Below the pieces are notes generated by a model. It was not told where the DNA came from, did no database searches, and saw nothing but the letters and a program-made list of their open reading frames with translations. A DNA stretch of 64,000 nucleotides from the IMG/VR virus record IMGVR_UViG_2861084961_000001; one strand, written 5' to 3'. The position numbers and the translations under genes were made by a program. Shown piece by piece: positions 10,112-62,941 of the stretch. Positions within the stretch are counted from its first letter, which is position 1. The number at the start of each line of letters is the position of its first letter. The DNA comes from a virus (Duplodnaviria; Heunggongvirae; Uroviricota; Caudoviricetes).

Positions 10112-10186
10112 GATGGTGTAGCTCAGCGGTAGAGCAGTTGGCTGTTAACCAACTGGTCGGTGGTTCGAATCCACCCACCATCGCCA
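10112..10186 (+). tRNA. tRNA-Asn (anticodon GTT)
   Basis: Cloverleaf by eye: acceptor gatggtg/caccatc, anticodon loop ctGTTaa, T-loop ggttcgaat, CCA end. Confidence 0.8.
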
Positions 10187-10191
10187 ATTTA

Positions 10192-10278
10192 GGGGAGTTA
10201 GTCCGTAGAGGTAGCGGTGTAGACTGTAAATCTACTGTCATGGCGACTCGGGTGGTTCGACTCCATCACTCCCCACCA
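10192..10278 (+). tRNA. tRNA-Tyr (anticodon GTA), type II with long variable arm
   Basis: Acceptor ggggagt/actcccc, anticodon loop ctGTAaa, T-loop ggttcgact, CCA end. Confidence 0.75.
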
Positions 10279-10282
10279 AATT

Positions 10283-10358
10283 GCCGGTTTAGCTCAGTTG
10301 GTAGAGCGCCTGCCTTGTAAGCAGGATGTCAGCGGTTCGAGTCCGTTAACCGGCACCA
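10283..10358 (+). tRNA. tRNA-Thr (anticodon TGT)
   Basis: Acceptor gccggtt/aaccggc, D-arm agctcagttggtagagc, anticodon stem cctgc/gcagg with loop ctTGTaa, CCA end. Confidence 0.75.
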
Positions 10359-10582
10359 ATACAACGATAAGATCATTACGGTTAATCGTCGTTCATGTGC
10401 ACAATGACTGGTCGAAAGGTAGTGATCTTACCGTTGTGGTGGATTCGCAGACTGATGCGATAGCTTTCTTGGATGTTAGGGAAATGCGGCCGCAAATCTT
10501 CCCTTTCGCGAGCGGTGATCGTCCGTAGTCCTAATTGGCTGCACCGTATGCCGGAGATTCAGTACCGGCCACCACAACGGCC

Positions 10583-10669
10583 GGAGAGTAGGGAGCATGG
10601 TGCTCAAGCTGTCTTGAAAACCGCCCCATTGCGCAAGCGATGATGGTTCGATTCCATTACTCTCCGCCA
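10583..10669 (+). tRNA. Type II tRNA-like gene, anticodon TGA (Ser?), imperfect stems
   Basis: Acceptor ggagagt/actctcc, loop ctTGAaa, T-loop ggttcgatt, CCA; anticodon stem and variable arm pair poorly, may be non-canonical or pseudo. Confidence 0.5.
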
Positions 10670-57371: not shown

Positions 57372-57841
57372 GTGAGATTAACTACCTGGCGTTACGTGAG
57401 CGTTATTCACCAAAACCAGCGCCTAGATGCTCTGTTTGTGGCGAGGAAATGTCAATACAGCGCATATCTGGAGCACATGTCGTTTATGCCTGCTCCGGTG
57501 AGGGTGATGACGGATATTTTAAGATAGGACGTACTTTTGCAGACGAACATTATGAAAAATCACGCGTAACAGTAGTTGATGATAGTGATCCCGATGTGAT
57601 TGCACTGCTGGAAGAACTGGATAAAAGACGACATTACATCGGACGTCTTGAGCAGGAGAACGTAGAGATGGCCCTAACGCTTGAGAAGCTGCGTGTTGAG
57701 ATGAAGGCAGCCAAATCAAAACTCAACGAGCAGCGTGAGTATTACGAAGGTGTTATCTCGGATGGAAGCAAGCGCATAGCCGCTCTTCTTTGCAAGGACA
57801 ATCTTGTCAGCACCACGAACATTGAAGGTGAAAGAAGATGA
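57368..57841 (+). CDS. Hypothetical protein with CxxC pair and coiled-coil (157 aa)
   Basis: ORF; start overlaps upstream stop. Confidence 0.4.
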
Positions 57842-58161
57842 CCACATCGCATTCTGCTATTACCCAGGAAAAAGCCTTCAACATACTCGAACGACTAGAG
57901 ACGCTCGCTACGGAGGAGGAGATATCCCTGGAGAAACTGGTTGAGTTCAGCCGTGTGATATTGCGTCGCAAGAACGATATGGAGCGGCTGACATCTGGCG
58001 CTCCATCCTTATCAGCCAGGCGAACACTTTGTTGCAGCTTCTGCAACAAATCCCAGTACGCCGTCAAAAAGTTAATTGCTGGGGACGCCGTTTTCATCTG
58101 CGACGAGTGTGTGGATGTGTGCAACAGAATTATCCGGGGAGAGAAAGAGGGATCAGCATGA
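57838..58161 (+). CDS. ClpX N-terminal zinc-binding-domain-like protein (stand-alone, 107 aa)
   Basis: [38 protein letters not shown] closely parallels E. coli ClpX ZBD ([37 protein letters not shown]); no AAA+ module follows. Confidence 0.65.
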
Positions 58162-59988: not shown

Positions 59989-60611
59989 GCACGGTAGCGA
60001 AAGATCTCACAGAAGATATTCTCAATGAAATTATTGTTGGTGCAAATACCTCGCTTGAGCAACTTCTTGCGTTAGCACTGAGAGCCGAACGTCGAGACAG
60101 AAATCGTTTTTATGAGCGATTACCTGGGAAACGACCAGATAGATCAGATGAAGAAGGTTGCGATATAGACTACATGGAGCCTTCAGAGATTTATCAACTT
60201 GGTAAAGATGACGGCTGGAACGCTTATCACGATGCTGTGATGAAGTTGGATGAAAAAGTTAAACCTCTTTCTCGAACGGTAGATCACGGTTTCCGCGATA
60301 ACTGCGAATGCTCTAGTTGCCAGACCACGGCCCGTATTTGTTCCGAATTGACAGATAAATCCAGCCTAATCTACGAAGTTAATGTAGGCGGTAATACATG
60401 GGTCGAATGCACAAGAGCTGCATACGTAAGAGCAAAAGACAAGGGTGAATTAACCAGAGTTGTTGCCCATCACCCAAATAATGAGCTTAAAGATCACCAA
60501 ATTCGAGAACTGGTGAACGAGTTGAGGGATATTGCGGTTCAGTACCACGGAACGCAGCAATTGCGGGAGAAGATTGCCAGAGCAGTGAACAACTCAGTCC
60601 GTAAAAAATAA
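59985..60611 (+). CDS. Hypothetical protein with Cys cluster (208 aa)
   Basis: ORF; CECSSCQ motif; last gene before noncoding junction. Confidence 0.4.
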   Translation: MSTVAKDLTEDILNEIIVGANTSLEQLLALALRAERRDRNRFYERLPGKRPDRSDEEGCDIDYMEPSEIYQLGKDDGWNAYHDAVMKLDEKVKPLSRTVDHGFRDNCECSSCQTTARICSELTDKSSLIYEVNVGGNTWVECTRAAYVRAKDKGELTRVVAHHPNNELKDHQIRELVNELRDIAVQYHGTQQLREKIARAVNNSVRKK

Positions 60612-60720
60612 GCAATAGTACGATAAAGAGGCCCCATGCTCTTGATGGGGCCTGTAGCAACTAGCGTTATGGACGCTGGTTTACGTACTCAATGATCGCT
60701 TTGATAATCGCGAACATCGG

Positions 60721-61024
60721 CGGCACGATTTTGAACAGTAAGTTAACCATAACAGGCCTCACTTAGTTTTATCGCGCCTAGCTGCAAATACCTTTGGGCT
60801 TGCCTTTGCAGTTGCAATATCTGTAGTCGCCAGATACTTACGGCACGATTTCGAGTTAAGGTAAGGTTTTAGAGTCACCAAAAACCTGGACTTAAATCTT
60901 CTTTGAGAACAACGATGTTTAGTAAATGGTCATTATTACCTGGTATGACCACTCAACGTTTCTTGATGAATCCAGTACATTCGGTTAATCTTAATTCAGT
61001 CGCCAGATACTTATGGCTCAGGAA
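60721..61024. repeat. Interleaved direct repeats: composite agtcgccagatacttacggcacgattt (60825-60851) with its right half repeated at 60721-60731 and left half at 61008-61023
   Basis: Exact 11 bp and 16 bp matches read from sequence. Confidence 0.6.
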
Positions 61025-61049
61025 CAGAGCCGCAAACTCTGTTTCCTTT

Positions 61050-61082
61050 TAAAAAGCCCAGCCTAGTCAACTGGGCTTTTTA
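61050..61082. terminator. Hairpin aaaaagcccagcctagtcaactgggcttttt (bidirectional terminator candidate), preceded by second hairpin ggaacagag...ctctgtttcc
   Basis: GC stem flanked by A-run and T-run. Confidence 0.6.
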
Positions 61083-61379
61083 ATGTCTATTTTTAACCCA
61101 ATGAACCTTCAATACCGCAACATCAGTGTCTTGCGAATTAAGATAGTGTGTATAGGTTATACATGCAAGTGCATAACTCTGTGGATAACTCAGGAAGGAA
61201 AAAGTAGCTTCCGCGCAATTTAGGCCAGACAAGGCTTTCGCAAAAATCAACGGAGAGAAAAAAATTTGTTAAAAATAACGTTTGTTGGAATTGTATATAT
61301 TTATGCCTTTCAATAGTTAGCATCTTATTAACATCTTTTTTAAGAGATAGAGTTCAAAAATATATAGCTTCAACATATA

Positions 61380-61395
61380 CTGTATGCATATACAG
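61380..61395. promoter_or_regulatory. LexA (SOS) box CTGTATGCATATACAG upstream of UmuD'-like gene
   Basis: Perfect CTGT-N8-ACAG palindrome 19 bp upstream of ATG 61414. Confidence 0.8.
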
Positions 61396-61413
61396 TATTA
61401 AGAGGCGAGTATT

Positions 61414-61803
61414 ATGGGCTTCCCTTCTCCTGCGGCGGATTATGCTGAGAGCCGTATTTCTCTTGATCAGCAGATAATTAGACATCCTTCAGCGACCTAC
61501 TTCTTGAGGGCAGCTGATAGCCATCATCGTGAGGGAATATTGCAGGGTGCATTGCTGGTGGTCGATTCCTCACTCACTCCTGTTGATGGATCTCTTCTTG
61601 TATGTGCTCTGGATGGGGAATATCGCGTAAAAAGATACCGGAAGTATCCACGTCAGCATCTGGAGGATTTAAGAACTGGTAAGAAGGAAGCATTGCCAAA
61701 GGATGATGATGGATGCACGGGCAGCAATGCCGTGTTTGGTGTGATCACTCACATTATCAACGACGCAAGAAGTGGCGAGTTTGATGATTGTCCTGTGATG
61801 TAG
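61414..61803 (+). CDS. UmuD'-like protein (HumD-like; starts at the position corresponding to the UmuD self-cleavage site)
   Basis: MGFPSPAADYAESRISLDQQIIRHPSATYF matches UmuD residues ~25 onward; Ser-containing ADS motif; no umuC-like gene follows. Confidence 0.7.
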   Translation: MGFPSPAADYAESRISLDQQIIRHPSATYFLRAADSHHREGILQGALLVVDSSLTPVDGSLLVCALDGEYRVKRYRKYPRQHLEDLRTGKKEALPKDDDGCTGSNAVFGVITHIINDARSGEFDDCPVM

Positions 61804-61815
61804 GAGAACTGTTTA

Positions 61816-61839
61816 GGTGGTGCATTGCACCACCTTTTT
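61816..61839. terminator. Bidirectional terminator hairpin ggtggtgcattgcaccacc + T-run between convergent umuD'-like and mrp
   Basis: 9 bp stem with T-run on plus strand and A-run equivalent on minus strand. Confidence 0.65.
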
Positions 61840-61840
61840 A

Positions 61841-62941
61841 TCACACTGCGCGGAATGCGATTTCGCCAGGTATTACTTCACCTTGCCAATACATTTGGGC
61901 AGCAACGCGATCTGCGAGGTCACGATAAATAGCCGTAAATTCGCTATCTGGACGACTAATAACGGTTGGTGTTCCGTTATCCAGATCCTCACGAAGAGAG
62001 ATATGAAGTGGCATTTGGCCTAACAACTGCGTGTTGTATTTCTCGGCCAGTTTCTGTGCGCCACCGGTGCCAAAAATTGGCTCGTGATGACCGCAGTTAC
62101 TGCAAATATGCACACTCATGTTTTCGACGATACCTAGTACCGGCACTTCGACTTTTTCGAACATCACAATGCCTTTCTTCGCATCGATCAGCGCGATGTC
62201 TTGCGGCGTAGTTACCACAACCGCACCAGTTACAGGAATGTTCTGCGCCAGCGTCAATTGAATATCACCAGTGCCCGGCGGCATATCGAGAACGAGATAG
62301 TCCAGATCAGGCCACAGTGTTTCCTGCAACATCTGCATCAGCGCCTTGCTGGCCATCGGTCCACGCCACACCATTGCATTGTCGTCGGTGACCAGATAAC
62401 CAATAGAGTTGGTTGCCAGGCCATGAGACATGATAGGTGCCATGTGAGTACCGTCCGGTGAGGTTGGACGTTGGTTTTCCGCACCCAGCATGGTTGGAAT
62501 TGATGGACCGTAGATATCGGCATCCAAAATACCAACTTTCGCACCTTCAGCAGCCAACGCCAGTGCCAAGTTTACTGCTGTGGACGATTTGCCTACACCG
62601 CCCTTGCCTGAGCTGACGGCGATGATGTTCTTAACGCCATTAATGCCTGGTTGGTTTTTGACGCGCTTAAGCGTGGCAATGTTGTACGACAGCTTCCAGT
62701 CGATAGCCTTTGCGCCAGTGATACGGAGCAGATCACCACTACATTGCTCTTTCAGGTCTTCAAAAGGCTTATTCCACACGAAAGGCATGATTAGTTCGAC
62801 ATGCAGTGTGTCATCCATCAACGCAACATGGTGTAACGCTTTAAGCGTAGTCAGGTTGTGCTTCAGGGTTGGGTGCTGAAAATTAGCCAGCGTACCGGCT
62901 ACCATTGCTCTCAGGGCATCCGGCGATTTGGACTCGCTCAT
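61841..62941 (-). CDS. apbC: Fe-S cluster carrier ATPase ApbC/Mrp
   Basis: 366 aa; P-loop GKGGVGKS, CxxC; chromosomal gene divergent from metG as in E. coli. Confidence 0.9.
   Translation of the reverse strand: MSESKSPDALRAMVAGTLANFQHPTLKHNLTTLKALHHVALMDDTLHVELIMPFVWNKPFEDLKEQCSGDLLRITGAKAIDWKLSYNIATLKRVKNQPGINGVKNIIAVSSGKGGVGKSSTAVNLALALAAEGAKVGILDADIYGPSIPTMLGAENQRPTSPDGTHMAPIMSHGLATNSIGYLVTDDNAMVWRGPMASKALMQMLQETLWPDLDYLVLDMPPGTGDIQLTLAQNIPVTGAVVVTTPQDIALIDAKKGIVMFEKVEVPVLGIVENMSVHICSNCGHHEPIFGTGGAQKLAEKYNTQLLGQMPLHISLREDLDNGTPTVISRPDSEFTAIYRDLADRVAAQMYWQGEVIPGEIAFRAV

Follow-up and report, generated by a model that had tools for sequence, protein, structure and literature searches.

A probable type I toxin-antitoxin-like module with a divergent small RNA in the repeat-rich region of an SSU5/pECOH89-like phage-plasmid

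What do the shared half-site repeats and strong hairpins at positions 60612-61413 of IMG/VR virus record IMGVR_UViG_2861084961_000001 belong to? The original prediction, made on the 64,000-nucleotide stretch analyzed here (hereafter the window), took this region for a noncoding junction at which phage-like DNA gives way to chromosomal genes, and likened its repeats to recombination (att-like) sites or duplicated small RNA modules. Our analysis favors a different answer: positions 60620-61081 probably form a self-contained type I toxin-antitoxin (TA)-like module, carried as cargo on an SSU5/pECOH89-like phage-plasmid, in which a small RNA (sRNA) from one strand would silence the mRNA of a short hydrophobic peptide encoded on the other.

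The half-site repeats are real. The left half (D1) is a 20-nt direct repeat, AGTCGCCAGATACTTA[C/T]GGC, found at 60825-60844 and 60998-61017 with 19/20 positions matching; its downstream copy thus exists, about 10 nt away from where it had been placed (61008-61023). The right half (D3), CGGCACGATTT[T/C]GA, matches at 13/14 positions between 60721-60734 and 60841-60854. In dinucleotide-preserving shuffles of 60612-61413, a repeat of 20 nt with at most one mismatch never arose (0/60), whereas one of 14 nt with at most one mismatch arose in 7/60, so that the left-half repeat is far beyond chance and the right-half repeat alone is not; the latter gains meaning because it is conserved in relatives. 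The three hairpins that had been pointed out are also present, that at 60629-60653 being a minus-strand terminator and those at 61020-61047 and 61049-61083 the stem-loops of one RNA.

Relatives of the module were retrieved with an invariant leader motif (SL-2), which yielded 44 further loci from GTDB, IMG/VR and metagenomes; 31 distinct versions remain after duplicate removal. By BLAST, diverged copies (68-77% identity) lie in unrelated replicons, namely plasmids of Citrobacter, an IncFIB plasmid of 261 kb from Klebsiella and a further plasmid of E. coli, in none of which the module is annotated. The homology among replicons is limited to the unit running from the peptide gene to the sRNA terminator, at which it ends. 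A near-identical copy of this enterobacterial module is present in a contig labelled 'MAG: Bacillota bacterium' (L010, JAEWTL010000044.1), which is probably mis-binned.

The description of the region as noncoding was wrong, since it contains a conserved 27-codon open reading frame (ORF) in addition to an sRNA gene. The ORF and its expression signals are the following.

60750..60667, minus strand: 27-codon ORF plus stop, MVNLLFKIVPPMFAIIKAIIEYVNQRP, putative membrane toxin ('type-2' peptide)
60757..60762, minus strand: Shine-Dalgarno (SD) sequence GTGAGG, 6 nt upstream of the ATG, read from the sequence
60621..60653, minus strand: intrinsic terminator of the putative toxin mRNA, stem 60653..60629 then CTTTATCG (terminator scan, 9 pairs)
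60782..60811, minus strand: SL-2, hairpin CUGCAAA...UUUGCAG of the 5' untranslated region (UTR), 100% paired and invariant in 15 distinct sequences
60887..60926, minus strand: tentative toxin promoter, -35 TTTACT (60926..60921), -10 GAAGAT (60901..60896), transcription start near 60889

The ORF is kept in all relatives, where it is preceded by equivalent SD sequences (TAAGG, AGAGG, GGAGG). Two paralogous peptide types were distinguished (alignment A3): type 2, to which the window peptide belongs, and type 1, for example MQMLLLFLKLAHPVTVIIMTLLGFWKNR. The pooled pairwise ratio of non-synonymous to synonymous polymorphism (pN/pS) is 0.24 for type 2 and lies at 0.18-0.27 for both types, each of which also displays a third-codon-position bias (variable sites by codon position, for example, 12/6/21). 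By these comparative measures the ORF is a real gene under purifying selection, with a pN/pS of about 0.2. The window peptide has a grand average of hydropathy (GRAVY) of 0.86, within a range of 0.86-1.23 across the peptides, and a basic C-terminus. In public databases the exact peptide is unnamed or called just 'hypothetical protein', and searches of Pfam, NCBIfam and PHROGs gave no match for five peptides.

Loci carry type 1 or type 2 alone, or both in tandem on one mRNA. The tandem order is type 1 then type 2 in six loci (L005, L006, L007, L009, L021 and L049), each peptide with its own SD on one predicted mRNA that has a single leader and a single sRNA target; the window has type 2 only, and L003 and L004 have type 1 only.

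The terminator stem begins 13 nt past the stop codon of the ORF and may also stop the upstream plus-strand operon; the corresponding terminators of relatives are different in sequence and equivalent. At the other end of the predicted mRNA, a scan of 13 relatives showed a weak sigma-70-like promoter candidate at the same position in most of them. Its -10 ends about 68-75 nt upstream of the target-site 3' end, and strong sequence conservation starts just downstream of it, at CCAGG. The leader folds with a z-score of -3.35. A mok-like leader ORF (TTG start, 60881..60759, stop inside the SD) was considered and rejected, as it is broken by in-frame stops or frameshifts in relatives.

On the opposite strand, the sRNA gene and its target comprise the following elements.

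60963..60991, plus strand: predicted sRNA promoter, -35 TTGATG (60963-60968), 17-nt spacer, -10 TAATCT (60986-60991)
60998..61081, plus strand: 84-nt sRNA, putative antitoxin, consisting of a free 5' end, hairpin 1 and a terminator
60998-61017, plus strand: single-stranded 5' end of the sRNA, complementary to the 5' UTR of the putative toxin mRNA
61020-61047, plus strand: hairpin 1 of the sRNA
61049-61081, plus strand: terminator hairpin and U-run of the sRNA (U-tract 61077-61081)
60825..60844, minus strand: sRNA target in the 5' UTR, 75-94 nt upstream of the ATG, GCCGUAAGUAUCUGGCGACU in mRNA sense
60817..60837, minus strand: SL-T, target hairpin GUAUCUG-gcgacua-CAGAUAU, whose loop is the complement of the first six bases of the sRNA

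The predicted first nucleotide of the sRNA, A60998, lies 6 nt past the -10, and the arrangement TTG[ATC][AT]G-N17-TA[AT][GTA][CA]T-N6 stands at the identical position in every complete relative, while the sequence of the spacer varies. The sRNA folds at -34 kcal/mol (z = -5.6). In an alignment of 16 distinct family members (alignment A1), 93% of cells in its structure are paired and 7 pairs have compensatory changes; this covariation score was reached by 0/500 shuffles, and slid controls gave 29-58% pairing. When the window is searched with a covariance model of the family (R1), just one full-length copy is recovered, at 97.6 bits and with ends exactly at 60998 and 61081. The comparative evidence thus identifies the sRNA as a structured, conserved RNA. 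The proposal of duplicated small RNA modules was close to right: one repeat copy is indeed the 5' end of an sRNA, whereas the other is its antisense target and not a second sRNA. A second sRNA at 60825 on the plus strand was rejected, as R1 scores just 20.4 bits there, on the seed alone and with the hairpins absent. A plus-strand ORF at 60915-61052 (45 aa, ending at the sRNA terminator) was likewise rejected, the region between the two promoters being unconserved. Transcription of both RNAs is inferred.

Because the upstream repeat copy lies in the oppositely transcribed leader, a duplex of 20 nt that includes one G·U pair can form between the two RNAs. No other site in the 64-kb window is as good a trans target for the sRNA 5' end as this one (-38.5 kcal/mol, compared with a background of -20.3 ± 3.5). 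The seed of about 20 nt varies by lineage, being GTCGCCAGATACTTA, GTCGCCAGATACATT, GTCGCCGGATACATT, GTCGCCGGTTAACAAC, GCTGCCAGATACATT or GTAGCCAGA-ACATT, and GGTTAACAAC in L005, and within each locus the leader copy has the same sequence as the sRNA seed. Contiguous duplexes span 19-25 nt in relatives, and the 13 distinct sRNA/target combinations comprise 259 Watson-Crick and 23 G·U pairs, with 0 mismatches within the contiguous duplexes. All differences between the DNA copies inside the duplex are C in the leader and T in the sRNA, or A in the leader and G in the sRNA, which is the sole direction that preserves RNA pairing; neither simple repeat homogenisation nor protein binding predicts this directionality. 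The leader target site is moreover one arm of a hairpin, SL-T, and the other arm co-varies with it: 94% of the SL-T cells are paired, 3 pairs have compensatory changes, and in L005 both arms have been swapped together (GUUAAC/GUUAAC).

The right-half repeat falls within the leader and the coding sequence, where three further minus-strand elements were recognized.

60842..60849, minus strand: Y1, AUCGUGCC, the 5' UTR copy of the right-half repeat, complementary to X
60771..60778, minus strand: X, GGCGCGAU, just 5' of the SD, complementary to Y1 and Y2
60722..60729, minus strand: Y2, AUCGUGCC, the ORF-internal copy in codons 8-10, complementary to X

The minimum free energy fold of the window mRNA uses X:Y2, enclosing the SD and AUG; in the ensemble X:Y2 has a probability of 0.90 and the SD is 97% paired. 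In an alignment of 15 distinct leaders (A2), Y1:X is 92.5% and X:Y2 82.5% paired, and slid controls, measured over each whole four-helix structure, are about 29-50% paired. Informative changes in the X and Y helices are few, for example a G to A change in X opposite U. The complementarity of both right-half copies to X suggests that they may be its alternative pairing partners. In most relatives Y1 overlaps the sRNA target by 6 nt, and there the sRNA sequence GGCACG resembles X.

Taken together, these features suggest how the module might work. The minus strand would give an mRNA of about 270 nt with a long structured 5' UTR, an SD, the hydrophobic peptide ORF and a terminator, while the promoter on the other strand, located some 110 bp upstream of where the mRNA is tentatively placed to start, would drive the 84-nt sRNA. 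The unstructured 5' end of the sRNA would pair with the leader at its target, and by analogy with OrzO/zorO, AgrB/dinQ and IstR-1/tisB this binding could keep the mRNA untranslated, either through RNase III cleavage of the duplex or through altered folding of the leader. In the latter case, which we put forward as a hypothesis, the sRNA would take Y1 away as a partner, leaving X free for Y2 and the ribosome-binding region closed. Both the toxicity of the peptide and its repression by the sRNA are thus drawn from analogy, and the role of the module is most likely post-segregational killing that stabilizes a low-copy phage-plasmid, as suggested by analogy with dqlB-agrB and hok/sok. The diversification of the seed into at least five groups would prevent cross-neutralisation between cassettes on different replicons. 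A role in phage defence or in the lysis-lysogeny decision may also be considered. What this purely computational analysis establishes is the anatomy of the two genes, their conservation, the covariation within the RNA, the matched variation of sRNA and target, and purifying selection acting on the peptide.

Several points weigh against a type I TA module and its proposed switch. The window peptide is less hydrophobic than DinQ, TisB and ZorO (GRAVY 0.86 compared with 1.4-1.8) and has two central prolines, so that toxicity is not assured. The toxin promoter is weak and its placement tentative, as neither inspection by eye nor a position weight matrix revealed a strong sigma-70 consensus. The overlap between sRNA and Y1 is just 3 nt in the window lineage, and the covariation support for the switch is modest because X, Y1 and Y2 vary little. 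Masking of the target in silico gave no consistent change in SD accessibility, and the dominant helix, Y1:X or X:Y2, differs among relatives. Finally, gene conversion could be the source of the co-variation between the two repeats, although it would leave the wobble directionality unexplained.

The layout of the locus nevertheless places it close to a known class, that of the divergent, trans-encoded type I TA systems defined in T1TAdb, which includes TisB/IstR-1, ShoB/OhsC, Zor/Orz and DinQ/AgrB (PMC8594479). As in this class, the window has an ORF for a hydrophobic peptide of <60 aa (27 codons), served by an SD and a terminator of its own, a non-overlapping sRNA gene that lies 5' of the putative toxin gene, within about 300 nt and on the opposite strand, and extended complementarity between sRNA and 5' UTR, amounting to 19-25 nt in 13 distinct loci. 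The K-12 dinQ-agrAB, Nissle zorO-orzO and pOXA-48 dqlB-agrB loci were fetched for comparison. All three have the layout of the window, with the toxin on one strand and, in its leader, a direct repeat copy that precedes the start codon by about 75-100 nt. The other copy, at a distance of about 165-200 nt, forms the 5' end of a divergent sRNA.

One of the closest known systems is zorO-orzO of E. coli, in which (as in zorP-orzP) the sRNA is divergent and non-overlapping and a direct repeat gives about 18-20 nt of complementarity between the sRNA 5' end and the 5' UTR. Its target lies 78-96 nt upstream of the ATG (75-94 in the window) and its sRNA starts about 164 nt from the target copy (173 in the window). 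The long 5' UTR of zorO controls translation (PMC5397157). The terminators of OrzO and the window sRNA are similar (ACCYG.CU.A.CAG.CRGGUUUUUU), whereas the 29-aa ZorO peptide and the window peptide are unrelated in sequence. The Rfam model OrzO-P (RF02083, gathering score 60) had no match on the window sRNA at E ≤ 1 and reached at best 34.2 bits, on the sRNA of the relative L007; R1 in turn scored 26.4 bits on OrzO, on the terminator only. A further difference is that zorO is chromosomal in 7066/7070 places, whereas the module in the window is on a phage-plasmid. In the RefSeq record of E. coli Nissle, the chromosomal zorO-orzO (L058, between yehK and yehL) is unannotated. In the K-12 gene order the yehK-yehL interval is within roughly 10 kb of chromosomal mrp(apbC)-metG; the plasmid module also sits beside apbC-metG, which is probably a coincidence.

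The architecture of dinQ-agrA/agrB and of the plasmid system dqlB-agrB is also as in the window. In an experimentally supported model, translation of dinQ is set by mutually exclusive leader helices that AgrB shifts, followed by RNase III processing (PMC5066626), which is conceptually like the proposal for X, Y1 and Y2. The dqlB-agrB system is a validated addiction module of pOXA-48 that kills cells after plasmid loss and is often unannotated (PMC12365149). The best sub-threshold Rfam match on the window sRNA was AgrB (RF02891; 27.6 bits, E = 0.17, gathering score 40). Conversely, R1 ranked AgrB (24.1 bits) and AgrA (22 bits) first and second in the K-12 locus, and gave 26 bits on pOXA-48 agrB, on the terminator only. 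The hairpin tops, too, are similar (GAG-CCACCAA-CUC versus GAG-CCGCAAA-CUC). The peptide had no match at E ≤ 10 with the NCBIfam models for DinQ and DqlB (NF041472 and NF041473; cut-offs 30 and 35 bits), although these models give their own controls 54 and 73.5 bits, and its hhalign probability against DqlB was 5.8%. A blastn comparison of the window with the dinQ loci detected no similarity. The dinQ and dqlB systems differ further in having 30-35 nt of complementarity, compared with 20 nt in the window, and dinQ and tisB are SOS-regulated, whereas the toxin promoter of the window has no LexA box.

In tisB-istR-1, whose primary transcript is inert, a divergent sRNA pairs at a standby site about 100 nt upstream of the ribosome-binding site; the window gave no match to this system by sequence or by model. 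The proposal resembles hok/sok and ldr/rdl in invoking plasmid-borne post-segregational killing by a small membrane peptide, and the basic C-terminus and P...II...[WY]xNxR pattern of the window peptide faintly recall Ldr. In both of those systems, however, the antisense RNAs are cis-encoded and overlap the mRNA, whereas the window sRNA does not. The peptide has no Pfam match to Hok (Hok_Gef) or Ldr, its hhalign probability against LdrD is 9.6%, and, at variance with Hok/Sok, the leader reading frame is unconserved in relatives. No Rfam gathering threshold was reached in the window, and the sub-threshold matches to AgrB, RNAI and OrzO-P stem mainly from generic hairpin and terminator features. 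Since the layout is shared while the peptide and RNA model tests fail, the module resembles the zorO/dinQ class without belonging to a described family. In the literature, supplements and subscription papers aside, we found nothing on the peptide strings or on type I TA systems of SSU5/pHCM2 phage-plasmids; the peptide may have been listed earlier among predicted 'novel' type I toxins.

The alternative that survives best, which we nevertheless consider unlikely, is that the ORF encodes a benign small membrane or regulatory protein tuned by the sRNA, and is neither a toxin nor part of an addiction module. The moderate hydrophobicity of the peptide would fit this, as would its PP motif and charged residues, which are atypical of pore-forming type I toxins; no toxin family model matches it, and we infer its toxicity only by comparison with other systems. 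Against a benign protein, the module is an autonomous cassette moving among plasmids and phage-plasmids, it has the gene layout and target geometry of zorO/dinQ-type TA loci, its mRNA is predicted in the window to be highly structured with the SD sequestered, and its sRNA seed has diversified into specificity groups, all of which are typical of addiction modules.

It is far less credible that the direct repeats are protein-binding sites, either operators or iteron-like sites, controlling divergent promoters or plasmid functions. Two intergenic direct repeats 173 bp apart might suggest such sites, and a perfect palindrome with 7-bp arms (TGGTCAT-N11-ATGACCA, 60927-60951) lies between the divergent promoters and abuts the tentative -35 of the toxin promoter. 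In L010 the outer pair of its core, GGTCAT/ATGACC, is altered on both arms (AGTCAT...ATGACT), a single compensatory change. This palindrome, possibly an operator or a hairpin, occurs in the window lineage only, and elsewhere its place is taken by GAACGGTTTA-type tandem repeats or GGAACC/GGTTCC inverted repeats. However, no protein gene accompanies the module across backbones, and the G·U-compatible differences between the repeat copies are not predicted by DNA binding. In addition, one copy is positioned exactly at the start (+1) of a structured RNA that a terminator bounds, and the other is half of an mRNA hairpin with a co-varying second arm.

The remaining idea, that of an att-like junction where a mobile element meets the chromosome and site-specific recombination has left half-sites, is refuted: the half-site sharing is visible in the sequence and cargo at this point varies among related phage-plasmids, but the DNA on either side belongs to the phage-plasmid, no integrase lies next to the site, the repeat segment is contiguous in >100 records and intact in other replicons too, and the sRNA, its target and the leader elements account for every base of the repeats. 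By BLAST, the 117-kb plasmid pRM9131-1 is contiguous with the window from 60400 to 62100 over the full length at 99.2% identity. This interval is at least 80% covered in >100 E. coli records, almost all of them phage-plasmids of about 100-117 kb, and the repeat-bearing region is also contiguous in the phages Cyrano and CMS-2020a. Because pRM9131-1 encodes repA, dnaE, nrdAB, thyA, a dihydrofolate reductase and similar genes, the whole window is, by gene content, an SSU5/pECOH89-like phage-plasmid. Neither about 115 E. coli records nor 97 PLSDB records annotate anything over the module.

The genes that had been taken for chromosomal, apbC and metG, are annotated on the plasmid records themselves. 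The query was matched at megablast level in just 831/5426 E. coli genomes, and the chromosomal apbC is therefore not close to that of the window. The segment 61841-64000 holds the phage-plasmid's own apbC (mrp) and metG paralogues. Its apbC has diverged so far from the chromosomal gene that megablast does not detect it in most E. coli genomes.

Comparison with related phage-plasmids that have the humD-apbC-metG flank and lack the module indicates what the site is instead. To the left of humD these relatives, which are other plasmids, carry different cargo or nothing, and homology with them restarts at about 61369, directly ahead of the LexA box. As this flank is shared from there on, the site is a cargo-swap point within the phage-plasmid family and not an att site, and the position left of humD is a variable cargo hotspot. 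In L056 (pAVS0968-B) and L057 (p2_20377) the humD-apbC-metG block is present and the TA module is replaced by a toprim-domain gene, which comes with or without a pair of genes for a DNA-binding protein and a hypothetical protein. No tRNA or tmRNA integration target was found near the site. The sole tRNA genes in the window form a cluster of four phage-plasmid genes (Asn-GTT, Tyr-GTA, Thr-TGT and Ser-TGA) at 10112-10669.

A bolder form of the type I module reading can be offered as a tentative possibility. The loci might represent an undescribed family of mobile type I TA cassettes with two tandem-capable toxin types, an sRNA that mimics X, and at least five mutually non-cognate seed groups. 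The GGCACG sequence of the sRNA would then compete for Y1 and flip a Y1/X/Y2 switch whose third element lies inside the coding sequence. If this were true, phage-plasmids and plasmids that share a host could be sorted by seed into addiction or competition groups.

SSU5/pECOH89 phage-plasmids are common in E. coli, including clinical isolates, and to our knowledge their stable maintenance is poorly documented. A type I addiction module unseen by annotation pipelines and family libraries would be a stability determinant hidden in "intergenic" DNA, much as dqlB-agrB on pOXA-48 was hidden until 2025. For studies of antisense specificity and translational switching the family would be convenient, as it combines sRNA/target pairs that co-vary in a natural series with a compact leader that has alternative helices; for annotation, the gain is one sRNA model and one small-protein family.

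Outside the module, the following features were identified on its right.

61140..61290, no strand assigned: nrdA-upstream/ypaB-like fragment of about 150 bp, 82-85% identical to an E. coli chromosomal region
61378..61397, plus strand: LexA box TACTGTATGCATATACAGTA of the humD-like S24 peptidase gene (61414-61803)

The nrdA-upstream-like fragment sits between the sRNA terminator and the humD promoter and contains a DnaA box, TGTGGATAA, at 61182-61190. Its ypaB is a pseudo-ORF, the nrdA-proximal part and nrdA itself are absent at 61140-61290, and the plasmid nrdAB genes lie elsewhere. The neighbouring gene that had been called SOS-regulated does have a LexA box and encodes an S24 peptidase like HumD of phage P1. 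This box is the sole match in the window (2 mismatches to the consensus, 0 expected by chance), and the predicted promoter at 61353-61381 overlaps it. The HumD-like protein has 129 aa, and its gene has no umuC-like partner adjoining it, as is also the case for humD of P1. On the other side of the module, a 107-aa ORF at 57838-58161 has a CxxC...CxxC segment that by eye resembles the N-terminal zinc-binding domain of ClpX.

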